Shown: piece after piece, positions 570-17,181 of the stretch | Layout: each line of letters opens with the position of its first letter | How positions within the stretch are numbered: position 1 is the stretch's first letter | Source of the DNA: Escherichia phage vB_EcoM_DE15 | Direction: 5' to 3' (one strand) | Sequence record: NC_079184.1 | DNA length: 53,998 nucleotides | Made by a program: the position numbers and the translations under genes | Notes under the pieces: model-generated | Databases searched by the model: none | What the model was told of the DNA's origin: nothing | Seen by the model: the letters and a program-made list of their open reading frames with translations, nothing else

Positions 570-585
570 ATTAGTTGGACGTGAA
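570..585 (+). promoter_or_regulatory. Putative phage-RNAP promoter (ATTAGTTGGACGTGAA) upstream of the RNAP gene
   Basis: Member of the 10-site intergenic + strand family with consensus ATTAGTTGGATNTGAA. Confidence 0.55.
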
Positions 586-651
586 TTGTGTAATGGCTAC
601 GCTATTATAATCCGTTTCAGTTAAATCATACACAATCTTGGAGACTTACAA

Positions 652-2592
652 ATGACTACTATCACCACTCAAACTATCAAATCCGTTGTTCCTGCTATCA
701 CTGCTCTGGTATACCGTGCCAAAGAGAAACAGAACTATATGCAGCCTCAGACTTGTGCTATTGCTGCCTTAGCCATCTTCAAGATGATGACGTCTTTCAC
801 TCGTGATGACGTTGTCCCTGCCATCGCGATGGTTGAACTGGCTTCTGCTTCTATTGCTGATGCCAACCGTTATAACAACGATTTGAAAGCAATGCACTAT
901 GTTGACCCAGCTATCAACCTCATTGGTCTGGCTAAGCACTTTGGCTTCATCACCATGAACGAAGACAAGTCATTCCAACAGACTGACACATGGGTTGAAC
1001 TGGTTACAACCAAAGACACCGCAGTGCCATTCACTGAGCGTGTTACATCTGAATCTCGTCGCAAGCCTTTCGTTAAAGGTGGCAAAGTTAAGCCATCCAA
1101 AACTCTGAAAGCTGCAATCGAATTCCTGCAAGATACTGAGTACCATGTGGAGACTGAGATGGTTCGCATCATCCAGTCCATGCTTGAGCAACGTACTTAT
1201 GGTGGCTTGCAGATGCCAGAAGCAATCCAGACTGAACTTCATGTTTGGAACAATGCTGTAGCAATGATGAATCAGGACACACTGTATTCTGACTACTTTG
1301 CTGACAACCGTGGTCGCCTGTATCATGTAGCATGTGCTGGTCCTAACCCACAATCTTCTGACTTTGCTCGTTGCTTGTATTCTCACAATGTTGAGAACAT
1401 CGTTAAGAAGTTTAACGAAGATGGTTCTACTACCATTGCATACAATATGTTCATGGCAGAACTGGAAGACATTTCCGGTGGTGAATGGTGCACTGCCAAG
1501 CGTTTGACTTATGTTGCTCAGAATCCAGCTGGTTCACTTGCTCGCATGATGAACATGCCTAAAGCTGAACGTCCTTCCAAGCCATTCACTTATGTTCGTC
1601 TGGCTCTGGATTGGTTCAAGTTTGAGACTACAGGTGAATGCGATTCTCGTGTAGGCTTTGGCTTAGATGCTAAATGTTCTGGTACTCAATATCTGGCATT
1701 CATTGCTGGCAATATGGAAATGGCTCGTGCAACAGGTCTGGTTGATTCTGAGACTAAAGCATCTGACCCATACCAGTTGAGTCTTCGTGAACTGTTGAAG
1801 CTGTTGGACAAGTCTTCAATGAAACCATCTCCTGAAATCATGGATGAATTCTTGAATCCGAAAGCTGGTCGTAAGTTTATCAAAACTCCGTACATGGCTA
1901 TTCAATATGGTGGTGGTAAAGCTGCACTAACTGGTTCATCTGACTTCATCAGCTACATGACGGAAGCTCTCCAGATTCCTATGGAGAAAGCTGAGGCATT
2001 TGCTGAACTGTGTGTAGAAGCAATCCATAACGCATTGGGTGCTAAGATTAACATGTTCATTGAGAAAGCTGCTGAGGCTGCATACAACCGTTGTGTTGAA
2101 CTCAACAAAGAGTACATCACATATCGTCACACTGATGGTCAGGTTGTAATGAAGCCTTGCTTCCCATCTCGTGAAATCTGTGAGGCATTCAGCATTCGTG
2201 TTGACAGCCAAACTCGTGTTATCTTTGGTCAGATTCAGGAGAATAAGCCTTGGACCATTCGTGAATCCAACCCAACTAAAGAAGAATTCAAGCGTACTTT
2301 CGTTGTTAACTACATTCAAGGTATTGACGCATTGGTTGCTCGTACTGTTGCAGTTAAAGCTAAAGAAGCTGGTCTTCGTGGTTTCACTTCAATCCACGAT
2401 TGTTTCCGTTGCTGTTTGGCAGATGCTCCACGTATGATGGAAGTTATTCGTGCAGCATATGTTGAAATCTTTGTAACCAACAATCAATTCGAGAATCTGT
2501 CTAAGCAACTTGGTGGCATTCAGATGTATCATGAGAACATCGTAACTGAAGAACTCCTGATGTCTGAACACGCTTACTACTTCTGTCAATAA
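652..2592 (+). CDS. Single-subunit T7-like DNA-directed RNA polymerase, compact (646 aa)
   Basis: Motifs read by eye: DNRGRLYH, GLDAKCSGTQYLA (motif A), KTPYMAIQYGGG (motif B) and SIHDCF (motif C). RBS GGAG at 640-643. Confidence 0.9.
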   Translation: MTTITTQTIKSVVPAITALVYRAKEKQNYMQPQTCAIAALAIFKMMTSFTRDDVVPAIAMVELASASIADANRYNNDLKAMHYVDPAINLIGLAKHFGFITMNEDKSFQQTDTWVELVTTKDTAVPFTERVTSESRRKPFVKGGKVKPSKTLKAAIEFLQDTEYHVETEMVRIIQSMLEQRTYGGLQMPEAIQTELHVWNNAVAMMNQDTLYSDYFADNRGRLYHVACAGPNPQSSDFARCLYSHNVENIVKKFNEDGSTTIAYNMFMAELEDISGGEWCTAKRLTYVAQNPAGSLARMMNMPKAERPSKPFTYVRLALDWFKFETTGECDSRVGFGLDAKCSGTQYLAFIAGNMEMARATGLVDSETKASDPYQLSLRELLKLLDKSSMKPSPEIMDEFLNPKAGRKFIKTPYMAIQYGGGKAALTGSSDFISYMTEALQIPMEKAEAFAELCVEAIHNALGAKINMFIEKAAEAAYNRCVELNKEYITYRHTDGQVVMKPCFPSREICEAFSIRVDSQTRVIFGQIQENKPWTIRESNPTKEEFKRTFVVNYIQGIDALVARTVAVKAKEAGLRGFTSIHDCFRCCLADAPRMMEVIRAAYVEIFVTNNQFENLSKQLGGIQMYHENIVTEELLMSEHAYYFCQ

Positions 2593-2599
2593 GAGAAAC

Positions 2600-2630
2600 A
2601 GGGCTGGCAATAGCTGGCCCTATTCTTGTT
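2600..2630 (+). terminator. Hairpin plus T-rich tail after the RNAP gene
   Basis: 9-bp stem 2600-2608/2613-2621 (2 G-U pairs), loop AATA, then TATTCTTGTT. Confidence 0.5.
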
Positions 2631-2695
2631 CATCAACAACTAAATCCCAATATTCAAGCAATATTGCTGCATGTAATATTGCTCCGATATTCGAC

Positions 2696-2711
2696 ATTAG
2701 TTGGATATGAA
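2696..2711 (+). promoter_or_regulatory. Putative phage-RNAP promoter (ATTAGTTGGATATGAA)
   Basis: Consensus family member, about 75 nt after the RNAP-gene terminator. Confidence 0.55.
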
Positions 2712-3237
2712 GTAAAAGAATACGGAGAAATATTCCGCATGTCATGTTGAATCATTCTAGAAACATTCAGCATGTCAGCTTTGAGTTACAGCGTTGTAAT
2801 GATGTGGCAATCATTGAACTCCCTGGGAAGGCCACCTATAGTTCCAGCAACCATGACTTAGAGTAGGAATATCTATCCGAAACTTGGACTTCATTGTAGT
2901 TTGGTGTGCTTCATCGTGAGAAAGGTTGTGATAACTTTCGTAAGCAGGTGTTGAACTAACAACAGAACATCGTGTTAGCCATCTTGATTAAGTTACAAGA
3001 AAGTCAACAAATCAGCATGTCTATTAGTAACAATCTTGTTCCTTCTCCTATTATCAAGGCCCACCCACAAGCCGGGAGATAACTTTGACAAGACTGGAAC
3101 TTTTGGACATGCTTCTTTCTTTCTACAAGAATTCGAAAGAAGAGAAGAGTCGGAGCAAAGCCGCGAAACTAATCCCGTAGCCCGCCCCCGATTTTGAGCA
3201 ACAAATATTGTGACAATTGCGTCGCAGTATGGCATGT

Positions 3238-3250
3238 AAATATTGCTACA
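3238..3250 (+). repeat. AAATATTGCTACA, third copy of the left-end 12-mer
   Basis: AATATTGCTACA is identical to 90-101 and 292-303. It directly follows a GCATGT motif. Confidence 0.8.
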
Positions 3251-3672
3251 AATTGGCATGTTGGAATGTGGCAGAATTGTTAGAGGACTAATCACCTCGA
3301 AGATACAATCGTCTACCAATCTGGCATGTTAATTTTGTAACAGTATTTGTGCCAATTTCGCATGTAATAGTTGTATCAGTATTGACCCAATATTCTTGCA
3401 ACCCGCATGAATACTGGCTTCCAGCCAAGCGAAGGCTTTATCATCGCATGTAATATTGTGACAATATTGGGATAAAACCCTTTATTTAAATCATTTAGTT
3501 TATTAATTAAATGGTCGGTTTTCTGTACATAGGTATTCAACTGTTTGTGCCAAATACAAACAAGTTGGCTGCTTCTACAGAACTCCAGTGCTACAAATGT
3601 TCGTGCCAATCTGCTGCAATTTATCTCATTTGGCGGGGTAATATTGTATTAGGTTGGTACGTCATTATTTCG

Positions 3673-3688
3673 ATTAGTTGCATGTGAA
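3673..3688 (+). promoter_or_regulatory. Putative phage-RNAP promoter (ATTAGTTGCATGTGAA), a hybrid with the GCATGT motif
   Basis: 15/16 match to the consensus. It contains the last GCATGT of the array. Confidence 0.5.
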
Positions 3689-3838
3689 TAAGACCAAATC
3701 TCTGTAAATTCTGTGACAGATTTTAGAGAGATTATGTCTCCAAGCTAATCATTGTAGTTCTTCGGCACTTAATGTGTCACATATATAGCCTGTGAAAAAC
3801 GTGTGGTTTATTGCTGGATTGCAACGCGCCCACCAGAC

Positions 3839-3949
3839 TAGGGAGTCCGTGATGGCGGCACACAGGAATACTATATAACTCCCTACAACTTTAAGGTGGA
3901 TTGAGGTAAGACAAGACCTCCACAATCGTTCTGTAGGGAGTTTTCTTTA
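3839..3949 (+). promoter_or_regulatory. Leader with mutually exclusive pairings, terminator-like
   Basis: AACTCCCTACA (3877-3887) can pair with TGTAGGGAGTT (3932-3942, 11 bp, followed by TTTTCTTTA). Alternatively it can pair with the upstream TAGGGAGT (3839-3846, 8 bp). Confidence 0.4.
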
Positions 3950-3964
3950 ACTTGGGAGAATAAA

Positions 3965-4213
3965 ATGGATACTGTGACTAAAGCTGCTTACTTTAAAGAC
4001 TTGTCAGATGGTCAAATATTTTCTATTCGCTCTGTAAAGTGGATTAAAGTAAATGAATCAGACAAGTACAATGCTGTAAAGTTCTTTGATTCAAGCAAGG
4101 CATGTACTTTTAGTGACAATATTGTTGTAAATATTGAAGTCGAATTAGAGCCAGATGATTCAAATGATGAAATCATTCTGCGTAAAACTGTTGGATACAC
4201 TAAAGGATTCTGA
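3965..4213 (+). CDS. Hypothetical early protein (82 aa)
   Basis: ORF with RBS GGGAGA at 3954-3959. First gene after the ORF-free array. Confidence 0.6.
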   Translation: MDTVTKAAYFKDLSDGQIFSIRSVKWIKVNESDKYNAVKFFDSSKACTFSDNIVVNIEVELEPDDSNDEIILRKTVGYTKGF

Positions 4214-4214
4214 A

Positions 4215-4445
4215 ATGGATTATGCACTGTATCACTATATAAGCAGGACTGGGCTTGTTCGTCACGCTTTGGTCAACATTAAAACCAAAGACATACTGTT
4301 GGCTGGCTTGTCAATTTACGAAAACAATTTAGTATGGAAACGTGCTGTACATCCTGGACATGTTTGGGATGTAATTCAGTCTGACAAATACCACAAAATT
4401 GTTGCAATGGCTAACCGACCAGAGCACATCAAGCCGAGGAAATAA
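4215..4445 (+). CDS. Hypothetical protein (76 aa)
   Basis: ATG at 4215, two nt after the upstream stop. In frame with track ORF 4155-4445. Confidence 0.55.
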   Translation: MDYALYHYISRTGLVRHALVNIKTKDILLAGLSIYENNLVWKRAVHPGHVWDVIQSDKYHKIVAMANRPEHIKPRK

Positions 4446-4447
4446 TC

Positions 4448-4636
4448 ATGGACTTCATCGTCTACTTTAAGTTAAATGGTGTAGAGCAAAGTTTGTACTT
4501 CAATTCTTTACTTCGTTTGCAACAGTGGGCGGAGAAGTTTGTTGGTTACGACTTTGATTACATCAATGCATGTACAACTGACGAACATGAGGAAATCGTG
4601 TTCAGTTCTTTAAATCAAATTCTGGAGGCCAAGTGA
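4448..4636 (+). CDS. Hypothetical protein (62 aa)
   Basis: Tightly packed ORF. Confidence 0.55.
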   Translation: MDFIVYFKLNGVEQSLYFNSLLRLQQWAEKFVGYDFDYINACTTDEHEEIVFSSLNQILEAK

Positions 4637-4824
4637 AGAGCAAGATTCTTAAGTCAGCAATGTATAATCTGCATTTCGGACTCAGCTACCCTACAGTAAA
4701 GCGTCAAGAGAAACGATTTTCACGACTACCTGCACGGACTGTTGCCAAAGAGGTTAAGAAGGCGAGCGAGATTCTAAAGTTCGTTATGTGGAAACGTGTT
4801 GTATTAACTCCGGAGACCAAATGA
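4633..4824 (+). CDS. Hypothetical small basic protein (63 aa)
   Basis: GTG start overlapping the upstream stop. Shares the PAR.VAK.V motif with ORF 5084-5248. Confidence 0.5.
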   Translation: MKSKILKSAMYNLHFGLSYPTVKRQEKRFSRLPARTVAKEVKKASEILKFVMWKRVVLTPETK

Positions 4825-5087
4825 GCCAGTTTAAGTTAAAAGCAGATTTAATCGAGTTGGCCTCTTATGAAGAGAAAATCGAATTCATCCAAGAACGTTT
4901 GGTTGTCAACTACGGTGGTTGGATTGATGTTTCTACAAATGAGTTGGTGGTTCGTATCAAGGAAGAGTTTGGTATTGAAATCACTAACAAACAGTTTTAT
5001 GAAGATGTTCTCACAGATAAAGTTATTCGAGGCATCACAAACAATTTCATGTCCAGCTTTATGGAAGGTGGGCCACGTTTAAAATGA
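4821..5087 (+). CDS. Hypothetical protein (88 aa)
   Basis: ATG at 4821 in an ATGA overlap. RBS GGAG at 4812-4815. Confidence 0.6.
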   Translation: MSQFKLKADLIELASYEEKIEFIQERLVVNYGGWIDVSTNELVVRIKEEFGIEITNKQFYEDVLTDKVIRGITNNFMSSFMEGGPRLK

Positions 5088-5248
5088 AGAAGCTCAAATA
5101 TATGACCAAAACGGTTACATATATGGCTATGTATGGTGCTTCAAAGCGTAAGGCTAAGAAATTGGCAAGAGCTGCAAATCCTCGTATGCCAGCACGTAAA
5201 GTGGCCAAAATCGTTAATCTGGTATTTGGCAATTGGAGTATTAAGTGA
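5084..5248 (+). CDS. Hypothetical small basic protein (54 aa)
   Basis: Hand-translated as MKKLKYMTKTV...PARKVAKIVNLVFGNWSIK. ATGA overlap with the upstream gene. Below the track size cut-off. Confidence 0.4.
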   Translation: MKKLKYMTKTVTYMAMYGASKRKAKKLARAANPRMPARKVAKIVNLVFGNWSIK

Positions 5249-5427
5249 ATTATGAGAATCTGCTATTAAGAACTAGTGGTGGGATGCTCATACTGACCAC
5301 ACCTGAGTTTCATTTCACAAGGGTATACTCCGAAGAATTTAAATCCTGGTTCCCAGCAAATCTAAAAACACGATGGCTTAAAGATTGTGTGCCTGTTGGG
5401 AAGAATGTAAAGCTAAGGAGTAAATAA
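5245..5427 (+). CDS. Hypothetical protein (60 aa)
   Basis: GTG start overlapping the upstream stop. Confidence 0.4.
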   Translation: MNYENLLLRTSGGMLILTTPEFHFTRVYSEEFKSWFPANLKTRWLKDCVPVGKNVKLRSK

Positions 5428-5600
5428 TGAACGACCAGCAATTCAACACATTCATGCAGCAAATTAATCATCAAGAACTGATGGATGCCATTAAAGGCAA
5501 GAAGCCAGTCGAACGTCAATATCGTAAAATTGATAATTATATGCCAACAATCATTGCATGTGTTGGTGTTGCTATTGTTCTCTACTTCCTGGTGAAATAA
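5427..5600 (+). CDS. Hypothetical protein with C-terminal transmembrane segment (57 aa)
   Basis: Hand-translated as MNDQQFN...PTIIACVGVAIVLYFLVK. Confidence 0.45.
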   Translation: MNDQQFNTFMQQINHQELMDAIKGKKPVERQYRKIDNYMPTIIACVGVAIVLYFLVK

Positions 5601-5686
5601 TGTCGATTGCTAAGAAACTGTTATTCTGTATCGTAATGTTCCCTATGGTGCTGCTCGTTGTGGGCAGCTTCATGTACTTAAACTAA
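5600..5686 (+). CDS. Possible 28-aa membrane peptide
   Basis: Hand-translated as MSIAKKLLFCIVMFPMVLLVVGSFMYLN. The start overlaps the upstream stop. Confidence 0.3.
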   Translation: MSIAKKLLFCIVMFPMVLLVVGSFMYLN

Positions 5687-5695
5687 GGTAATTAA

Positions 5696-6004
5696 ATGGC
5701 TTCTTTACTCGAATTCTCAAATATTGCAAATGTTGCTAAGAATTCTATTCCGGAAAATCCGGACGTAATTGCGTACATGCGTGTTGATGTAAGTTTGTTA
5801 GCTTTTGTAATGGACCACATCAACCTTGTTGAAGCGCAGTTATCTCAGTCTTACGAAACAGTTGACACTCTTCGTGGACTTCGTACAGCAGAGCAACAGG
5901 CTTATGCTGACCTCATGGAGCAAAAGAACAAGCTCCAAGAACAACTGGCAGACGCACTTCAACAAATTGAAGACATGAAGCCACCAGCAGAATCAACCAA
6001 ATAA
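5696..6004 (+). CDS. Hypothetical protein, coiled-coil C-terminal half (102 aa)
   Basis: ORF with RBS AAGG upstream. Confidence 0.6.
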   Translation: MASLLEFSNIANVAKNSIPENPDVIAYMRVDVSLLAFVMDHINLVEAQLSQSYETVDTLRGLRTAEQQAYADLMEQKNKLQEQLADALQQIEDMKPPAESTK

Positions 6005-6022
6005 TCAAACTTAGGAGTTGTT

Positions 6023-6283
6023 ATGGCTACCAAAACAGGCATGATGATTGTCCCAAGCCGTAATAACTCTTTAAGCGGCTTTACACCATATAAAATCTAC
6101 GAAGTGATTTCTGGCACTGGTGAAGCAAACCTGTCAGAAGTTGCTTTGAAGTTGGGCCGTATGGTCCACTCCGAAATCTCCTGTAACGTAGTTGATGATG
6201 AAGGTAAAATCCGTTTTGTAACAATGGATTTCTTTCGTGAATTTAACCTCAAATCTGAATTAGGAGTCCTGTATCATGAATGA
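6023..6283 (+). CDS. Hypothetical protein (86 aa)
   Basis: RBS AGGAG upstream. Confidence 0.65.
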   Translation: MATKTGMMIVPSRNNSLSGFTPYKIYEVISGTGEANLSEVALKLGRMVHSEISCNVVDDEGKIRFVTMDFFREFNLKSELGVLYHE

Positions 6284-6464
6284 GGATGATGATGATGTTG
6301 TTTGCCCGAAGTGTGGCAGCAATAACGTAGACCATGTAGCACACGAAGCAGTGGGAATGTATGGTCCCGTAGTTCTGGACAGTGCATTCTGTGTAGATTG
6401 TGGTTTAAACATTTATCATGGAAAACTTATAGACAATAGTGGGAATATCCCGCCAAAAGGATAA
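6276..6464 (+). CDS. Small zinc-ribbon protein (62 aa)
   Basis: Cys pairs CPKCGS and CVDCG. Confidence 0.6.
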   Translation: MNEDDDDVVCPKCGSNNVDHVAHEAVGMYGPVVLDSAFCVDCGLNIYHGKLIDNSGNIPPKG

Positions 6465-6466
6465 TC

Positions 6467-6694
6467 ATGAAATTTAAATGTGTTGCTTCAACCAAAGATT
6501 ATGTTCCAGTTGGCTTCATCGTTGAAGGTGAAGCTATCTCACCTTTGGAATTTAAAGTGACCAAATCGGCTGAGAGTGTTTCTCCAGCATTTCGTAAAGG
6601 TGCTGTAGTGCCTATGAATGGTACATTCTGGACATGGCAGCGCGACCATGAAGCAGAATTTGCAGACATTTGTGAACAAGGTTTATTGCAATGA
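6467..6694 (+). CDS. Hypothetical protein, paralog of 6691-6921 (75 aa)
   Basis: Shares the MKFKCV start, a VG..(V/I)EGE motif and a W.W C-terminal motif with its neighbour. Confidence 0.6.
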   Translation: MKFKCVASTKDYVPVGFIVEGEAISPLEFKVTKSAESVSPAFRKGAVVPMNGTFWTWQRDHEAEFADICEQGLLQ

Positions 6695-6921
6695 CAAAGT
6701 TTAAATGTGTGAAATCAACCTCTTCATCTGAACATACTCCGAAAGTTGGGGATGTGATTGAGGGAGAACTTATCCACATACAGAGAAGACACGGAACAGA
6801 CACTCGAATAGTTATTTCGAATGTTGGAAACCGAATGGCTGCAAACGGAAGGCCATATTGGAACATTGGTGAAAAGGTTCCGCTAAAAGGTAGTGTCTGG
6901 TCCTGGGAAGAAGTTAAATAA
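6691..6921 (+). CDS. Hypothetical protein, paralog of 6467-6694 (76 aa)
   Basis: Contains MTKFKCVKS...VGDVIEGELI...GSVWSWEE. Confidence 0.6.
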   Translation: MTKFKCVKSTSSSEHTPKVGDVIEGELIHIQRRHGTDTRIVISNVGNRMAANGRPYWNIGEKVPLKGSVWSWEEVK

Positions 6922-6927
6922 TTTCCT

Positions 6928-6954
6928 CAACCACTTTTGTAATGAGAGTGGTTG
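6928..6954 (+). terminator. Hairpin (8-bp stem CAACCACT/AGTGGTTG)
   Basis: Stem 6928-6935/6947-6954, 11-nt loop. The downstream sequence is AT-rich but has no clean T-run. Confidence 0.35.
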
Positions 6955-6984
6955 CTGAATATTATTAATTAACTTGGAGCATTT

Positions 6985-7275
6985 ATGAAACAACGTACTC
7001 GTTTACAACGTGACCCAGCCACAGGTCGCATGTTGCCAGCATACTTGAAAGTTGGTGACTTGGTTTACACTCGCGACTTTGCTTTTGACATTTGCCCAAG
7101 CAAAGCATATGAAGTTCTTGCCACCAGCTTGTCTGGTCCTAAAGTAATATTTGGTGCACTTGAGCCAATCCAGTTAACCGGAACTCAGTTTGTCATTAAA
7201 GACGAATCTGGTTGCAACCGAATCTTCAATCTTGAAGGAGGTTTATCCAAATGGGAGAAGGTGAAGCGTGGGTAA
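6985..7275 (+). CDS. Hypothetical protein (96 aa)
   Basis: RBS GGAG upstream. Contains a KVGDLVY beta-barrel-like motif. Confidence 0.6.
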   Translation: MKQRTRLQRDPATGRMLPAYLKVGDLVYTRDFAFDICPSKAYEVLATSLSGPKVIFGALEPIQLTGTQFVIKDESGCNRIFNLEGGLSKWEKVKRG

Positions 7276-7501
7276 GAATTATATCGAAATGTTTAAGCGA
7301 TTGTCTGTAAATGGGCAGGAGTTCTTGTTAAACGATGCAAGACAAGATATTGAATTGTCTGACAAGTATTCTTATTTTGCCCAAAAGACAATTGTGAAGT
7401 GGACATTCTCTTACATGTCCGCCAGTATTCCAGGAGAAACGCTCGTAATTAGCGGTTCTGGAGATTCAGTTTTAGCAGCTTTGGAGAAACTAAAGCAATG
7501 A
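7268..7501 (+). CDS. Hypothetical protein (77 aa)
   Basis: GTG start overlapping the upstream gene. Confidence 0.5.
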   Translation: MGKNYIEMFKRLSVNGQEFLLNDARQDIELSDKYSYFAQKTIVKWTFSYMSASIPGETLVISGSGDSVLAALEKLKQ

Positions 7502-7785
7502 ACAAGAATTCAATTTTGCGTTATGTTGGTAAAACAAACTACAACTTTACCAACGGTAAGAAATACAAAATCGTCGCAGGTCGTGGTGACGGGGTTCCTC
7601 GCAACAACGGTACACTCGGTGCGTATATTCAATCTCCTTTGGGTTTTGTCGTTAATGATGATAACAGCAATTTATGTTATCGTACATTCTCCGATAATTG
7701 GGAACTTGTGAAAGATTCTGGTGAAGTTAGTTGGTATAAACCTGAATCAACAATCGACCCAATTCCTATTTCAAAATCTATGTGA
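7498..7785 (+). CDS. Hypothetical protein (95 aa)
   Basis: ATGA overlap with the upstream gene. Confidence 0.6.
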   Translation: MNKNSILRYVGKTNYNFTNGKKYKIVAGRGDGVPRNNGTLGAYIQSPLGFVVNDDNSNLCYRTFSDNWELVKDSGEVSWYKPESTIDPIPISKSM

Positions 7786-7828
7786 TTAACAATGGGCATC
7801 TTCTGTAGGTGTCCATGATTAATCCAAC

Positions 7829-7844
7829 ATTAGTTGAATGTGAA
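7829..7844 (+). promoter_or_regulatory. Putative phage-RNAP promoter (ATTAGTTGAATGTGAA)
   Basis: Consensus family member, 22 nt upstream of the macro-domain gene. Confidence 0.55.
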
Positions 7845-7865
7845 TAACAACTACTGGAGCAGATT

Positions 7866-14675: not shown

Positions 14676-15014
14676 ATGGCTAAGATTGTAACCGTAACTC
14701 AGTACGAAGCTAACGATGGTTCCCTGTTCCTGACCGAAGCAGAGTGTAATGCACATGACTTCAAACTGGAAAACGGTGCTAAAATTGAGAAAGCTGCCGA
14801 AGCGTACCTGAACACCGTTGGCGCTATCGACCGTTCTCGCTCCATGCAGAAGAACACCATCGAGCAGTTCCTGGCATTCTACCTGCCGTGGGTTGAAGCT
14901 GGTGAGCCGGAAGTTGAGCGTACTAAGTTCGATACTCCGAAAGAAGCTAAAGTTGCTGACGCAAGTGTTGCCGAAGCTGCCGAAGCTGCTGTTGAAGAAG
15001 CTCCGGTATTCTAA
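14676..15014 (+). CDS. Acidic Ala/Glu-rich protein (112 aa), function unknown
   Basis: Strong ctg/cgt/gaa codon bias suggests high expression. Net charge about -10. Has its own promoter. Confidence 0.7.
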   Translation: MAKIVTVTQYEANDGSLFLTEAECNAHDFKLENGAKIEKAAEAYLNTVGAIDRSRSMQKNTIEQFLAFYLPWVEAGEPEVERTKFDTPKEAKVADASVAEAAEAAVEEAPVF

Positions 15015-16104
15015 GTTGCCGATGGCAAACTTGAGAGACTAAGCTAAATCGATCTGGCATGCACTGGAAGATTTCCGGTGCTGCCTTGAACCCATTCTGA
15101 AAGGAAGAGTGGGCTTCAATGAGCATTCTTGTGATTAGAGTTGGGAGGTAGGCCGATGCCCAAGCTCATGGCCCAGACAAGAGTGTTCATTGAAGTTACT
15201 TCAATATGGATTGTCGCCAAGTTGTGGAAGGACGTGCACACAGATTTAACGAAGAAAAGTAACAGCCTGAGAACTGTGAAAATTTCCCGTTATGTCGTGG
15301 GGAAGTGCACCATAGCTTGGGTTCTTCACGTAGATATTACTCAGATATTTGCGGCTCGCTGAATGTGAGCATCCATATTGAAGTAGTTTTCTGAGTCTTA
15401 CGACGGGCCTAAACTGCCTGAAGTTATTGCGACTGTTTTATTCATTTAAAATAAATGCAAATGATTCTGAAATGCGAGTTGCGGCTTAATTAAATTTAAG
15501 TCCTCTCCGTGGTCTTCCAATCCCACGTAACCAAATTTGGCGCATTGTGGCTTCGAGATGTGATTAATAAATCGGAGCAATAATTAATTTGTATTCTGCG
15601 ATGCAATGCAGGCTTAAGTCCCTCAGTGCGCGTGGGGATGTGACAGAGTACAAACTTAATTATGCAGTTGGATATTTCTAGAGGACGGACGAGCACACTG
15701 GAATGTCTTCAATTGGTTTAGTGTGAGAAGCTATGCCAATATGAAACGTAACTCCTTGGGGAAGTGCTCCTCTGGATTTCCCTCCACACAGGAATCTCAA
15801 GCCTGTGGCAGCGACTTCGAAGCTGCACTGCGTAACCTAAATTCACCCTAAAGTGAGTTGCCCTGAGTATGGAAATAAACTGCTCATAACCGATGGTATC
15901 TACAAAGGTAGATTAAATCAGGTTGCCTGTTGGTACTTGGGTTCAACACCTGCTTGCACTCGCAAAGTAGTGCCTCGTACCTGAGATGAAGTGAGTCGGG
16001 ACCATCAATCCCACGTTATGTCAAAACACAGTAGGCGGCTCACGGATTCTACAAGCCTCGCAGTTCGGGAAAACCTGCGTTATCAAAACCCCCCTCTTTT
16101 ATTT
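15015..16104 (+). ncRNA. ORF-free structured island 2 (candidate large ncRNA(s))
   Basis: No credible ORF. Many hand-foldable hairpins. The 11-mer CAATCCCACGT occurs twice (15518, 16006). Degenerate promoter cores at 15463-15485 and 15666-15675. Confidence 0.3.
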
Positions 16105-16196
16105 GGACGAGTAGCTCAGAAGGTTTGCATTGTGCTCAGTCAGGTAGAGCAATCTGTTCGACAGATGTGTCGTTGGTTCGAATCCAACCTCGTCCA
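16105..16196 (+). tRNA. Aberrant tRNA-like gene (possible pseudo-tRNA or tRNA mimic)
   Basis: 7/7 acceptor pairing GGACGAG/CTCGTCC, T-arm GTTGG-TTCGAAT-CCAAC and D-arm GCTC-AGTCAGGTA-GAGC. There is a ~20-nt insertion after a duplicated GCTCAG. The anticodon arm is only 15 nt (ATCTG-TTCGA-CAGAT). The 3' end is ACCCA. Confidence 0.45.
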
Positions 16197-16228
16197 CCCA
16201 CTTTAATAATAGCAATACTGGAGTCCTT

Positions 16229-16369
16229 ATGGATTTTGATGCACTTGATAATTTAGACTTCGGTGCTGCCGAAGAAGCAATTGAAGAACTTAAGAAGAAA
16301 CAGGACGAAGAAGCAATCGTTCCTGGTGAGGGCGATAACGACTGCTCAAGTGGTGCGTGCGCCATCTAA
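16229..16369 (+). CDS. Small acidic peptide with C-terminal CSSGACAI (46 aa)
   Basis: RBS GGAG at 16220-16223. Hand-translated as MDFDALDNLDFGAAEEAIEELKKKQDEEAIVPGEGDNDCSSGACAI. Confidence 0.45.
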   Translation: MDFDALDNLDFGAAEEAIEELKKKQDEEAIVPGEGDNDCSSGACAI

Positions 16370-16377
16370 GGTGATTC

Positions 16378-16614
16378 ATGCAACAGCTTAAGTCAATCTT
16401 TCTTGGCGTCTTGACTGCATTGGGTATTCTCCTTGCAGTGTTCCTCAAAGGCAAAAGCTCAGGCAAAGCCGAGGAGCGCCAGGAAGCCAAAGAGAAGCAA
16501 TTCGATTCCATTAAAGAATCTATCGAGATTAAAACGCATGTTCAGAAAGAAGTGTCTAGCAGTTCTGATAGCAATGTCGATAGTGAGTTGCTCTCAAAGT
16601 GGGTTCGTAAGTGA
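16378..16614 (+). CDS. i-spanin (Rz-like), 78 aa
   Basis: N-terminal TM segment IFLGVLTALGILLAVFL, a charged periplasmic domain, and an overlapping lipoprotein ORF. Confidence 0.7.
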   Translation: MQQLKSIFLGVLTALGILLAVFLKGKSSGKAEERQEAKEKQFDSIKESIEIKTHVQKEVSSSSDSNVDSELLSKWVRK

Positions 16615-16738
16615 TTACTGCATGATTGCACAACCAATCTATTTGGATGTTGCAGAAGTGAAAGTTTTATCACGCGAAACCAAAACACAGATTTTAGTCC
16701 ACAATGAAACGTGGGCACAAAAGTGTTCGAAACGATGA
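16538..16738 (+). CDS. o-spanin (Rz1-like lipoprotein), 66 aa, overlapped architecture
   Basis: MFRKKCLAVLIAMSIVSC lipobox. It starts inside the i-spanin gene in another frame and extends beyond it. Confidence 0.65.
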   Translation: MFRKKCLAVLIAMSIVSCSQSGFVSDYCMIAQPIYLDVAEVKVLSRETKTQILVHNETWAQKCSKR

Positions 16739-17181
16739 AATTATCAAAGCAGTATATTTACGACAGAGTTTCTAAGCGTCAGGAACCTACTTGGCAAGTA
16801 GACACAGATGGGTATTTATCTGCTTCGATTACTTTGCCAGAAGGCACTTTCAACGTAAGAAAACACATCTTGGTGTTCTACAAAACAAACGGATACATTC
16901 CAGATTTTGTGGACCATAAAGACAACAACAAATTAAACAATGCTCCAGACAACTTGCGAGAAGCAAGCAAGTGCCAGAATCAACAGAACTCCAAACGACC
17001 AAAGAATAACTCTTCTGGCGTTAAGGGTGTGTCACTAACCAAACACGGTAAATGGCAAGTTCGTATTATGGCAAATGGTGTGAAGCATTACGGTGGATTG
17101 TTTGACTCTCTCGAAGATGCCAAACAACACATAGAATCATTACGATTGAAATTACATAGTGATTTTGCTCGTAGTGTGTAG
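16735..17181 (+). CDS. HNH homing endonuclease with AP2-like DNA-binding domain (148 aa)
   Basis: HNH region VDHKDNNKLNNAPDNLRE. AP2-like region SGVKGVSLTKHGKWQVRI...GGLFDSLEDA. ATGA overlap with the o-spanin gene. Confidence 0.75.
   Translation: MKLSKQYIYDRVSKRQEPTWQVDTDGYLSASITLPEGTFNVRKHILVFYKTNGYIPDFVDHKDNNKLNNAPDNLREASKCQNQQNSKRPKNNSSGVKGVSLTKHGKWQVRIMANGVKHYGGLFDSLEDAKQHIESLRLKLHSDFARSV

Follow-up and report, generated by a model that had tools for sequence, protein, structure and literature searches.

The sequence considered here, hereafter the window, is a 53,998-nt stretch of Escherichia phage vB_EcoM_DE15 (NC_079184.1), which belongs to Carltongylesvirus (phiEcoM-GJ1-like phages of the Chaseviridae). 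A tRNA-like gene occupies 16105-16196 on the + strand, on which all features described below also lie. It sits in an early accessory region, near an immunity-to-superinfection gene and a few kilobases downstream of an anti-restriction gene. On its 5′ side, a conserved block at 16048-16092, consisting of a hairpin (CGCAG-loop-CTGCG) flanked by AAGCCT and TTAYCAAAAC, marks the border of the slot in which the gene resides. On its 3′ side, an A+U-rich trailer with a ribosome-binding site (16200-16228; GGAG at 16220-16223) serves a 46-codon ORF that precedes the spanin genes. Scans for sigma-70 promoters and intrinsic terminators found none near the gene on the + strand. A "phage promoter" motif annotated in phiEcoM-GJ1, ATTAGTTGGA, was discarded as a candidate since its match at 16098-16113 needs three mismatches and the site is not conserved in relatives, and the 45-nt upstream block was rejected as a repeated phage-polymerase promoter because it is present in a single copy in the window.

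The only match to an Rfam family in the 54 kb is to tRNA (RF00005), at 16105-16196, with an Infernal score of 45.2 bits against a gathering score of 29 (E = 1.8e-6 for the whole window). The copies in relatives score 41-46 bits, with an insertion placed in the D loop; default Infernal filters dropped three of six of these. The resemblance of 16105-16196 to tRNA is thus far beyond chance. The acceptor stem pairs GGACGAG (16105-16111), which is invariant in 28 genomes, with CTCGTCC in seven of seven positions, and the 3′ strand is followed by discriminator A16196 and then CCC (together 16189-16199). The window therefore encodes no CCA after A16196; phiEcoM-GJ1, ST32, Mangalitsa and others do encode it. 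U8, A9 and the 5′ strand of the D stem (the first GCTC copy, 16112-16117; D stem according to Infernal) are invariant in all relatives, as are the opposing GAGC with A26 (16147-16151) and the variable loop GTGTC (16167-16171), whose G44, G46 and C48 suit A26-G44, G22-G46 and G15-C48 tertiary contacts when read from the sequence. The T arm, GTTGG-TTCGAAT-CCAAC (16172-16188), is canonical and varies only at the last T-loop position (T/C at 16183). The 7-bp acceptor, 5-bp T stem, 7-nt T loop (TTCRANY) and 4-bp D stem of the canonical class are all present, and the sequence carries the nucleotides expected of the tertiary core at positions 8, 9, 14, 15, 18/19, 21, 26, 44, 46, 48 and 53-61; of these, U8, A14, G18G19, A21 and G53-C61 are invariant in relatives. 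The original prediction had called the acceptor (7/7), the T arm and a D arm textbook, and each of these elements is found where it was placed.

The D loop and the anticodon arm

Two parts of the gene depart from the canonical class. The first is a D loop of 29 nt (16118-16146), in which AGAAGG supplies A14, G15 and a first GG and is followed by a variable core (16124-16133), a second GCTCAG (16134-16139) and TCAGGTA, which supplies a second GG and A21. The corresponding loop is 30 nt long in what we term type B genomes and 24 nt in SA91KD, compared with about 7-11 nt in canonical tRNAs. The original prediction had drawn the D arm as GCTC-AGTCAGGTA-GAGC (16134-16150), separated from the acceptor by a duplicated GCTCAG, and had proposed a comparison with related phages to see if the insertion is specific to this genome. 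After U8/A9 and ahead of that D arm there are indeed 20 extra nucleotides (16114-16133), made up of a second GCTCAG and AAGGTTTGCATTGT; however, the duplication is exact only in type A genomes (the window, phiEcoM-GJ1, Bp10, SKA49, ST32 and one metagenome contig), while type B, which includes most relatives, reads GCTCAG...GCTTAG. Infernal and the thermodynamic fold of one relative moreover place the extra nucleotides inside the D loop rather than between acceptor and D arm, the D stem being formed by the first GCTC and GAGC. Nor is the insertion peculiar to the window, as it is shared by all 28 genomes that carry the gene.

Among these relatives the insertion measures 15-21 nt. A 6-nt deletion in SA91KD is the sole exception to the invariance of AGAAGG and AGTCAGGTA, and the insertion core varies in 6 of 11 columns. 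In type B the core folds into a hairpin (AG-G-UCUG-CUC-CAGA-G-CU), which forms part of the minimum-free-energy fold of SA91KD; its type A counterpart in the window is degenerate. A metagenomic relative, L165, carries a 32-nt hairpin-bearing insertion at the equivalent position of its D loop. The cloverleaf itself lies 3.5-4 kcal/mol above the minimum and is not the minimum-free-energy fold of either type, which is taken as a limit of the method. An anti-Shine-Dalgarno role was considered for the type B sequence CTCCAG, which complements CTGGAG at the downstream ribosome-binding site; the match is treated as chance because it is absent from type A and shows no covariation.

The second departure is the 15-nt anticodon-arm equivalent at 16152-16166, ATCTG-TTCGA-CAGAT, which has the 5-bp stem and loop TTCGA that had been predicted for it. 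The stem is invariant and the loop (16157-16161) is 5 nt long in all 28 genomes; a canonical 7-nt loop with a non-Watson-Crick 32-38 pair is found in none. Reading the arm as a 7-nt loop requires a 4-bp stem together with a Watson-Crick G32-C38 pair; of 90 phage tRNAs sampled, none has both.

Conservation within Carltongylesvirus

The short loop and the D-loop insertion occur together in 28 of 28 gene-carrying genomes. Across these, the tRNA body has three substituted sites in 76, all of them compatible with the structure in that they yield G-U pairs or fall at the variable T-loop position; the only change in the acceptor 3′ strand, C/T at 16191, retains a G-C or G-U pair (G5-U68). Counted by alignment column, 8 of 76 core positions vary, six of them through the deletion in SA91KD. 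By comparison, 24 of 46 third codon positions of the next ORF are variable (Fisher p = 1e-6 against the core), as are 30 of 47 columns of the flanking spacers (p = 8e-10), and the spacer at 16197-16228 varies in 18 of 34 columns. The invariant part includes 21 nt that make up the anticodon stem, A26 and the variable loop. The tRNA body is under strong purifying selection, and the loop triplet and insertion core drift at about the background rate of neutral proxies. As no compensatory double changes were found within Carltongylesvirus, the structural case within the genus rests on conservation and the tRNA model score.

The loop reads TTCGA in 22 genomes, TAAGA in three, TTAGG in two and TCGAA in one. 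The last is the exact reverse complement of TTCGA, which indicates a loop inversion in one event. The corresponding triplets UCG, AAG, UAG and CGA would specify Arg, Leu, Leu and Ser, respectively, so that the anticodon conservation expected among orthologues is lacking: four triplets are carried by a constant body among genomes that are 85-99% identical over the 181-nt tRNA region. AAG is kept in three diverged genomes, and the discriminator, A or G among relatives, does not track the triplet. The first and last bases of all four variants are always U..A or U..G, a retention of U-first and purine-last that mimics a true anticodon loop and, with seven changes on five sites, is not statistically significant. 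Between the variant genomes and their nearest TTCGA neighbors, 4-13% of unconstrained sites differ and 40-60% of loop sites do; this is not taken as positive selection, given that the lineages were picked for having changed. A faster-than-neutral loop was likewise rejected for the whole set, in which four of five loop columns are variable, close to the 52-64% of the neutral proxies, and one variant stems from the single inversion.

The original prediction would have had to give way to a simple pseudogene if relatives carried a canonical tRNA at this position and the present copy were neither expressed nor processed. Such a relative was sought with patterns that fix the anticodon stem and allow loops of 3-9 nt: viral contigs yielded five loci and metagenome contigs two further copies, all with 5-nt loops, and the one match among bacterial genomes, in a Clostridia contig, is no tRNA and is put down to chance. 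None of the 28 genomes carries a canonical version. The 22-nt string of the T arm has 121 matches among unrelated phage tRNAs, mostly Arg(UCU), Met and Asn, and is so generic that it says little about ancestry. The closest E. coli sequence is a plasmid tRNA-Asn of 76-77% identity (E of at least 0.5), so that neither a recent host origin nor gene conversion is tenable. Recent spread cannot account for the conserved body either, since the insertion, the loop and both flanks are strongly diverged.

The slot across the Chaseviridae

Some phages do without the gene, which is cleanly absent from PYps3T, 4T and 16T (PMC8762354); PYps23T has a tRNA-like unit. In BSBP01 and 2KOFFS the slot is filled by a strong hairpin (-23.7 kcal/mol, z = -5.3) that runs into AUUUUU and is 98% identical to a hairpin just 3′ of the cI repressor gene in Stx prophages; the latter is likely to be a terminator. 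The tRNA-like gene is accessory in character and dispensable in some isolates. By contrast with the highly variable sequence on either side of it, the upstream block varies in only 4 of 45 columns among 27 Carltongylesvirus genomes, and it is kept both where the slot is empty (PYps3T) and where it is otherwise filled (BSBP01). It also occurs in PP101, PM1, Faunus, 4HA13, Myduc and three metagenomic Chaseviridae contigs, where the loop differs and the stem and flanks are the same.

In every genus the locus holds a fixed position, with the early region on one side and the lysis and replication genes on the other. Downstream of the hairpin, tRNA-like units begin at +14 to +17 nt in PP101, 4HA13, Faunus, the three metagenomic contigs and the window. 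In other Chaseviridae genera the slot holds one to about five such units with NCCA ends, an acceptor stem and usually a T arm, the larger arrays being those of Faunus, L164, 4HA13 and PP101, and most of these units encode CCA. At the position of the anticodon arm they carry a GNRA tetraloop hairpin (GGCA-GCAA-TGCC), a long hairpin with a CUC triloop, or an irregular arm of 45 nt. Pairing of the first unit was compared across four lineages, that is, four sequences: 21 of 21 pairs are kept, two of the acceptor pairs having changed on both sides, against 36-50% in slid controls. We infer the homology of these units with that of the window from position and architecture, not from sequence. Conservation across genera is limited to the acceptor/T-arm half and the elbow, the anticodon arm being reduced or variable. 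TH23, TH28 and TH33 possess a second tRNA-like gene, with a 6-nt loop. A spacer motif of the other genera, CCAAACAATGG, is not enriched in the window. The region of the other genera is, as a separate observation, rich in aberrant tRNA-like sequences.

Function, alternatives and known systems

A body preserved by selection, a short loop that drifts and look-alikes at the same spot in other genera together suggest that the element probably has a function other than codon reading. We put at about 60% the probability that it is a tRNA-like RNA which is under selection and does not decode, with either role, in trans or through its excision. The original prediction had left a decaying tRNA-Arg gene and a non-decoding mimic side by side; the latter is favored by a triplet that is unconstrained among near-identical genomes and by the anticodon-less units that fill the slot elsewhere in the family. 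On the best reading, the element would be the Carltongylesvirus version of a locus that the Chaseviridae keep just upstream of their spanin genes. The RNA would be cut from an early polycistronic transcript by host RNase P on its 5′ side and by the tRNA 3′-end machinery on its 3′ side, CCA would be added where it is not encoded, and the product would be a stable L-shaped RNA of about 92 nt, with selection acting on the acceptor/T-arm half and elbow and not on the anticodon end. The earlier suggestion that RNase P cleavage could define the 5′ end of the lysis mRNA needs correcting in this respect, since RNase P would cut on the 5′ side of the tRNA-like RNA, where the upstream RNA would end and the mimic begin. 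It is 3′-side tRNA processing, which in E. coli involves RNase E, RNase Z/BN or exonucleases, that would generate the start of the lysis mRNA.

The mechanism that we tentatively prefer is that of a mimic of the top half of tRNA acting in trans, as a sponge, decoy or substrate of a factor that recognizes the shape of tRNA or its acceptor/CCA end; a tRNA-targeting host defense enzyme would be one possible target. A broader and rather unlikely extension is that the Chaseviridae keep a dedicated locus, made up of the conserved hairpin and one to about five anticodon-less, CCA-ending trans mimics of the acceptor half, of which the "tRNA-Arg" of the window would be the E. coli-phage member. Such RNAs could blunt immune attacks on tRNAs that are independent of the anticodon, as by tail-cleaving, CCA-modifying or arm-amputating effectors.

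It is also possible, if somewhat doubtful, that excision is itself the function and that the element is a purely cis-acting processing module, a tRNA punctuation mark whose excised RNA has no role of its own. The early RNA would acquire a structured 3′ terminus, and the message for the peptide, spanin and replication genes would start at a newly made 5′ end. The fixed position of the locus in every genus is consistent with this, as is the terminator-like hairpin that takes the slot in BSBP01 and 2KOFFS, and the features that bacterial RNase P measures (PMC4919913, PMC4810234) are the acceptor/T-arm half and elbow, the only parts conserved across genera. Against it, arrays of up to about five units exceed the need, the invariant anticodon stem, A26 and variable loop are not needed by RNase P, most units of other genera encode CCA, and phages of the PYps3T type have an empty slot.

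A working, if odd, elongator tRNA-Arg(UCG) is improbable. Under this explanation G31-C39 would open on the ribosome to give a 7-nt loop, G-U-UCG-A-C, the tRNA would supplement CGA decoding, and the remaining triplets would reflect a switch of anticodon or a recent loss. Databases label the gene variously as tRNA-Arg, tRNA-Leu, a truncated 71-nt tRNA with four of seven acceptor pairs, a spurious protein ORF or nothing; the name tRNA-Arg appears in several GenBank records and two papers, and ARAGORN calls tRNA-Arg(UCG) once the 20 nt are removed. CGA is rare in E. coli and poorly read by the host. In the phage it accounts for 7.1 codons per thousand and 15% of Arg codons, so that the commonest triplet, UCG, which would read it, gives the gene a codon-supplementing look. 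All loop variants retain U33 and have a purine at 37, the discriminator (A or G) agrees with that of E. coli Arg tRNAs, and 57 of the 121 matches to the T-arm string are phage tRNA-Arg(UCU) genes. The arginine reading suggested originally thus fits the triplet of 22 of 28 genomes, but the other six differ, and it needs the G32-C38 pair and 4-bp stem that the sampled phage tRNAs lack; with the canonical register (A26, 5-bp stem, 5-nt variable loop, G15-C48), just five nucleotides are left for the loop. The identity set of E. coli ArgRS comprises C35, G/U36, A20 and A/G73. A/G73 is present in the phage gene, C35 occurs in the 22 UCG genomes only, and A20 is lacking, the position after either GG being U (for a general review of identity elements, see PMC9976931). 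The six near-identical genomes with UAG, AAG or CGA thus lack C35 with the body intact, genomes 90-97% identical to one another leave no room for a difference in codon usage, and in other genera the relatives lack an anticodon loop altogether at the locus. The statement that these phages encode a tRNA-Arg, made in phage-therapy genome papers on Carltongylesvirus, should be treated with caution.

That the gene is a decaying pseudogene, a functionless relic of an ancestral tRNA cluster, is very improbable. A loop short by two nucleotides, a drifting triplet and insertion core, a CCA that is not conserved, absence from some viable phages and the abundance of aberrant tRNA-like sequences in this region of other genera would all suit a relic. 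Three substitutions in 76 sites against 52-64% in neutral proxies (p = 1e-6 to 8e-10), each compatible with the structure, largely refute it, and an Arg gene in decay would not be expected to show the same oddities in every genome on a body under purifying selection. The diverged insertion, loop and flanks exclude recent spread as the cause of this conservation, no host tRNA is close enough to homogenize the phage copy, and the acceptor stems of other genera show compensatory changes.

An intron of 20 nt between the GCTCAG repeats, whose removal would restore a normal D arm, is hardly credible. A GenBank note for phiEcoM-GJ1 states that the tRNA "may contain an intron", and deleting exactly these 20 nt does give a perfect D arm, but insertions of 15-21 nt are far too short for group I or group II introns, lie in the D loop and not the anticodon loop, and show no bulge-helix-bulge motif on inspection; the repeat is imperfect (GCTCAG/GCTTAG) in most relatives, and a 5-nt loop would remain after splicing. 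We know of no archaeal-type splicing endonuclease in enterobacteria, and neither an RNA ligase nor a kinase gene is present in Mangalitsa, a relative with good annotation. Least credible of all is a class II tRNA-Leu(CAG) in which the second GCTC...GAGC hairpin is the anticodon arm and ATCTG-TTCGA-CAGAT a long variable arm, where drifting loop sequence would be normal: ARAGORN returns it for the window and other type A genomes and the gene has been described as "arginine or leucine" (PMC8762354), but the D stem called by ARAGORN has one Watson-Crick and one G-U pair, its anticodon stem has an A-A mismatch, none of the 20 standard type B genomes receives the call and SA91KD is called Ser(GCT) instead, what would be the anticodon loop, AGUCAGGUA, has the textbook form of a D loop (A14, G15, G18, G19, A21), and Infernal aligns the gene as a class I tRNA.

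Returning to the selected, non-decoding tRNA-like RNA, such a molecule could serve as a shape mimic or as a tRNA-based mark of transcript punctuation, and the recurrence of the locus across a virus family, single or arrayed, strengthens the case. Natural knock-outs (PYps3T), replacements (BSBP01) and loop variants exist as isolates, so that the hypothesis is directly testable. Phage tRNAs are being reinterpreted as counter-measures to host defenses that destroy tRNAs, and the counter-defense tRNAs documented to our knowledge all still decode. A body under selection with a shortened, drifting loop would, if the reading is correct, represent a different solution. The tRNAs of T5, T4 and mycobacteriophages escape host tRNA nucleases through altered anticodon loops (PMC10264068, PMC11555353). 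Like them, the element is a phage-borne accessory tRNA body among early and host-interaction genes with an anticodon loop unlike that of the host; whereas those tRNAs have a 7-nt loop and a fixed anticodon and decode, the element has a 5-nt loop, an unconstrained triplet and a D-loop expansion of about 20 nt, and its apparent relatives in other genera have no anticodon loop.

Closer in outline are mascRNA/MALAT1-type elements (RF01684), in which a cloverleaf with a reduced, poorly conserved anticodon arm lies within a longer transcript and is excised by RNase P and RNase Z and given CCA, the cleavage setting the 3′ end of the upstream RNA. The phage element shares the cloverleaf and the reduced, variable anticodon arm, and its processing is predicted to be similar; mascRNA, however, is eukaryotic and nuclear, the two are unrelated in sequence, and the only Rfam match of the phage element is to tRNA. 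The tRNA-like domain of tmRNA and the tRNA-like structures of plant RNA viruses likewise retain an acceptor/T-arm half and CCA with no decoding loop (PMC5723415), and the element resembles them in keeping that half without a decoding anticodon loop. Those mimics belong to far larger RNAs whose aminoacylation is known (Ala, Val, His or Tyr), whereas the unit in the window stands alone at about 92 nt, has a complete D arm and anticodon stem, and lacks the G3-U70 Ala identity pair. Finally, the allo-tRNAs recovered from metagenomes, some of them phage-borne, have 8/4 or 9/3 acceptor branches (PMC5389517) and are, like the present element, natural tRNA variants that standard tRNA finders miss or mislabel. 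In allo-tRNAs, however, an aberrant acceptor/T branch is combined with a normal anticodon loop and decoding, while the element in the window combines a canonical 7/5 branch with aberrant D and anticodon loops.

The tRNA-like gene and its conflicting annotations

The tRNA-like gene occupies positions 16105-16196 (+) and reads GGACGAG-TA-GCTC-AGAAGG-TTTGCATTGT-GCTC-AGTCAGGTA-GAGC-A in its 5' half and, after A26, ATCTG-TTCGA-CAGAT-GTGTC-GTTGG-TTCGAAT-CCAAC-CTCGTCC-A in its 3' half. The acceptor stem has 7/7 pairs, the T arm is canonical, and the tertiary-core nucleotides (U8, A9, A14, G15-C48, GG, A21, A26-G44, G46, and G53-C61) are all in register. The gene scores 45.2 bits with the Rfam tRNA model (threshold 29, E = 1.8e-6), tRNA being the sole Rfam family in the 54-kb window, and a permissive scan of 15000-16400 returned nothing credible besides it. 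The two anomalies singled out in the original prediction, extra D-region nucleotides and a short anticodon arm, are confirmed; they amount to ~20 surplus nt and to a 15-nt arm whose stem has 5 bp and whose loop has 5 nt.

The window represents a Carltongylesvirus (Chaseviridae, phiEcoM-GJ1-like) with 92-98% identity to many E. coli and Yersinia isolates. When the locus was aligned from 24 GenBank relatives and three metagenomic contigs, both anomalies were found in every genome carrying the gene, and searches of viral, metagenomic, and bacterial collections (anticodon stem fixed, loops of 3-9 nt allowed) yielded no normal-loop copy. The refuting condition named in the original prediction, a canonical tRNA at this position in relatives, therefore does not hold, and the insertion is not specific to this genome. 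The insertion takes two forms: type A (GGTTTGCATT-GTGCTCAG) in the window, phiEcoM-GJ1, Bp10, SKA49, ST32, and one metagenome contig, and type B (GGTCTGCTCCAGAGCTTAG) in all other genomes, that of SA91KD being type B minus a further 6 nt.

Infernal takes the first GCTC as a D-stem strand and places 18-24 extra nt in the D loop past the first GG. The SA91KD sequence folds as a cloverleaf in both the minimum-free-energy and the centroid prediction, with the D loop AGA-[hairpin AG-G-UCUG-CUC-CAGA-G-CU]-GGUA. Standard type B is able to form the same hairpin (-28.3 kcal/mol, against -23.1 kcal/mol with the second copy as D stem), and in type A, including the window, 4/6 of its pairs are weakened or lost. 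Together, these folds and the Infernal alignment indicate that the "duplicated GCTCAG" is partly the base of an inserted hairpin, itself under no strong constraint; every fold retains robust acceptor and T helices (minimum pair probability at least 0.95).

Annotations of the gene date back to 2007. The phiEcoM-GJ1 GenBank record lists 95 nt of "tRNA-Arg, may contain an intron"; the ST32 paper describes a 95-bp tRNA-Arg "without an intron" (PMC6266442), the Mangalitsa paper reports "0 tRNAs" (PMC6753284), and a third gives "arginine or leucine" (PMC8762354). Records for Ecp_YSF and Pel53 list a 71-nt tRNA-Arg that starts within the insertion and pairs at 4/7 positions of its acceptor stem, and other GenBank records have no tRNA or a protein ORF over the gene. 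ARAGORN calls the window copy tRNA-Leu(CAG), a model in which the second GCTC...GAGC hairpin serves as anticodon arm and the 15-nt arm as a long variable arm; it has to accept a D stem of just one Watson-Crick and one G-U pair, as well as an anticodon stem with an A-A mismatch. Across 28 homologues it returned Leu(CAG) in six (the type A copies), Ser(GCT) in one, and no call in 21, and after deletion of the 20 nt it returned tRNA-Arg(UCG) with a 4-bp stem and the 7-nt loop GUUCGAC. Two ORFs crossing the gene, of 88 codons at 16099-16365 (-) and 71 codons at 15991-16206 (+), are almost certainly spurious; equivalents of the former are annotated as proteins in some relatives (EcoM1_00039, FXie-2024a), and its VGFEPT is the usual antisense T-arm translation.

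Selection on the body, insertion, and loop

Variation was compared column by column in 27 genomes, using third codon positions and two flanking spacers as neutral proxies. The tRNA body (acceptor, first D-stem copy with AGAAGG, second D-arm copy, A26, anticodon stem, variable loop, and T arm) has 8/76 variable columns, compared with 24/46 third positions of the adjacent 46-codon ORF (Fisher p = 1e-6) and 30/47 columns of the spacers (p = 8e-10). One SA91KD deletion accounts for six of the eight, and three substitutions occur in the body: C/T at 16137, T/C at 16183 (the last T-loop position), and C/T at 16191 (G5-C68 to G5-U68). The insertion core varies in 6/11 columns and the anticodon-position loop in 4/5, and the informative part is that both drift at about the background rate. 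Recent spread cannot explain conservation of the body because variable segments lie within it and on both sides of it. The closest E. coli sequence is a plasmid tRNA-Asn (76-77% identity), and no host tRNA is close enough to homogenise the phage copy. On this conservation pattern, the suggestion of a simple decaying gene appears to be ruled out.

The loop is TTCGA in 22 copies, TTAGG in two (Bp7, JL1), TAAGA in three (TH26, FXie, PYps16N), and TCGAA in one (TH29). Read as G-U-NNN-R-C, these would present UCG (Arg), UAG (Leu), AAG (Leu), and CGA (Ser); the body is constant across them and the discriminator, A or G, does not follow the triplet, so that identity does not change coherently. TCGAA reverse-complements TTCGA exactly and is thus explained by hairpin-loop inversion in one event. 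Faster-than-neutral loop evolution was first suspected and dropped as an ascertainment effect. Every variant begins and ends with U..A or U..G, which fits U33 and R37 and equally a sixth base pair closing a triloop (probability 0.11-0.45 in folds). Residual function as tRNA-Arg(UCG) is possible given several special assumptions, the main point in its favor being that CGA use by the phage is moderate (7.1 per thousand, 15% of Arg codons); however, the 7-nt loop would require a G32-C38 pair, which occurs in 0/90 sampled phage tRNAs, C32/A38 being present in 82/90. Readings as a pseudogene, a class II tRNA-Leu, or an intron-containing tRNA all conflict with the comparative data.

The locus across Chaseviridae

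Immediately 5' of the tRNA-like gene is a conserved non-coding block of 45 nt at 16048-16092 (+), AAGCCT-CGCAG-loop-CTGCG-TTAYCAAAAC, in which 4/45 columns vary in the genus amid highly variable surroundings. It is present as a single copy in the window and is thus not a repeated promoter, and it persists where the slot following it is empty. Other Chaseviridae genera keep its stem and flanks with a different loop (Pectobacterium phages PP101 and PM1, Erwinia phage Faunus, E. coli phage 4HA13, Proteus phage Myduc, Aeromonas phage phiA050, and three metagenomic contigs). A stem-closed unit starts 14-17 nt past the block in PP101, 4HA13, Faunus, the three metagenomic contigs, and the window; ARAGORN made no calls on the tRNA-like units outside Carltongylesvirus.

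The first unit of PP101 reads GTCTGCG...CTGGG-TTAAAGT-CCCGG-CGCAGAC-A-CCA, and its counterparts end in CACAGAC-G-CCA (metagenomic IMGVR_3300047563), AGCAGAC-A-CC (Faunus), and AGCAGGC-A-CCA (4HA13). In these four lineages 21/21 proposed pairs hold, and in two acceptor pairs both partners are replaced (C-G to U-A and G-C to U-A); pairing in slid controls was 36-50%. A D-like arm, CTCCG-AATTGTAG-CGGAG, is invariant among the four, and the anticodon-arm position is highly variable, being an 8-bp helix with a G-G mismatch and a GCAA tetraloop cap in IMGVR_3300047563, a long hairpin (TATTGG...TCTGC-CUC-GCAGA...CCAATA) in Faunus and 4HA13, and a 45-nt irregular arm in PP101. In PP101 (L160), PM1 (L163), Faunus (L166), 4HA13 (L168), and L164, arrays of ~2-5 units, each 60-110 nt with NCCA ends and short AACAAT-like spacers, occupy the 300-500 nt past the block, wholly in annotated non-coding stretches and with no ARAGORN call. 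The unit of the metagenomic L165 scores 40.8 bits as a tRNA and carries a 32-nt hairpin-bearing D-loop insertion positioned as in the window. TH23 (L024) has a second tRNA-like gene of 70 nt (543-612), identical in TH28 and TH33, between the first and the 46-codon ORF. Its acceptor stem is 7 bp long, a D arm and the T arm GTAAG-TTCGACT-CTTAC are present, and the anticodon loop has only 6 nt (CGACGG); ARAGORN labels it "tRNA-?(Val|Arg)(ac)" and Rfam gives no match at E <= 1. Reduction or replacement of the anticodon end recurs in these phages, with the acceptor/T-arm half and a CCA-type end kept. Nearby aberrant tRNA matches from Rfam include one with a shortened anticodon arm in L164 (5247-5315), one in Faunus (11779-11862), and two with mismatched stems, in PM1 (10491-10561) and L161 (2795-2865).

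In PYps3T, 4T, and 16T the gene is cleanly absent, the block being joined almost directly to the trailer (absence was noted also by PMC8762354), and short CCACC-type microhomology is seen at the junctions in relatives. BSBP01 (L158, 742-803) and Shigella phage vB_Shi_2KOFFS have in its place a 62-nt hairpin (-23.7 kcal/mol, z = -5.3) followed by AUUUUU. In Stx and lambdoid prophages, an unannotated hairpin matching it at 98% identity directly follows the cI-type repressor gene and is found in 275/5,426 E. coli genomes; apparently, a virulent phage picked up a prophage terminator-like element. Absence and replacement therefore mark the slot as a boundary tolerating exchange of structured elements, its content being accessory.

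The early region ends with this locus, which has the immunity-to-superinfection gene close by and the anti-restriction gene a few kb 5' of it; directly 3' are the 46-codon ORF, spanins, and replication genes. The ORF, at 16229-16369 (+) between the tRNA-like gene and the spanins, encodes an acidic peptide with C-terminal DCSSGACAI. Its first, second, and third codon positions vary in 3/46, 1/46, and 24/46 cases; it has no PHROG family, and the codon pattern clearly marks it as a real gene. At 15741-15984 (+), one extra nucleotide in an A run (CCTAAATTC vs CCTAATTC) breaks the homologue of gp30 (80 aa in phiEcoM-GJ1) into ORFs of 42 and 43 codons, which is compatible with a frameshifted gene, a sequencing error, or no gene at all. 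An HNH homing endonuclease gene (16711-17181 (+), PHROG 99, E = 9e-46) is inserted past the spanins and is absent here from phiEcoM-GJ1, flopper, and metagenomic L149 and L150, in which 16733 is joined straight to 17188. The "putative phage promoter" of phiEcoM-GJ1, ATTAGTTGGAnGtGaA, has ~10 copies on the + strand at 570-14598, all within the early third of the genome (15 matches at <=3 mismatches vs 4.1 expected by chance). A segment at ~15121-15373 (+), missing from phiEcoM-GJ1 and partly common to other relatives, lies in a ~1.2-kb stretch (15015-16228) with no convincing ORF. The neighbourhood reads as a mosaic of small cassettes.

Predicted processing and possible function

Selection maintains the element as a tRNA-shaped RNA gene but does not act on its anticodon end, and the gene is lineage-wide with positional counterparts across Chaseviridae; on this footing the earlier interpretation has partial support, its idea of a non-decoding mimic being the part that stands. 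Its anatomy, selection pattern, and family-wide locus of anticodon-less units appear undescribed in the literature searched, where no paper connects Chaseviridae with tRNA-like elements. Going by established E. coli tRNA biology, RNase P would excise the RNA on its 5' side, RNase E, RNase Z/BN, or exonucleases would process the 3' side, and CCA would be added where unencoded. Genes for an RNA ligase, a kinase, and a CCA enzyme are all lacking from Mangalitsa, a well annotated relative. Given that the acceptor/T-arm stack and elbow are what bacterial RNase P measures (PMC4919913, PMC4810234), excision would in addition sever the polycistronic transcript immediately 5' of the lysis genes. The proposal that RNase P defines the 5' end of that mRNA needs correcting: RNase P would act on the 5' side of the element, and processing on its 3' side would generate the 5' end of the lysis mRNA.

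A purely cis role is the alternative, to which the terminator-like replacement hairpin of BSBP01 lends support. We lean instead towards a trans-acting top-half tRNA mimic, whether decoy, sponge, or substrate, because units form arrays in some genera, CCA is usually encoded outside Carltongylesvirus, the whole L-shape is conserved in the genus (including anticodon stem, A26, and variable loop), and the gene is an accessory element of an early, host-interaction region. Such a role would also accord with the numerous host defences now known to attack tRNAs (PMC10264068, PMC11555353, PMC12851939, PMC13056530, PMC12445682).
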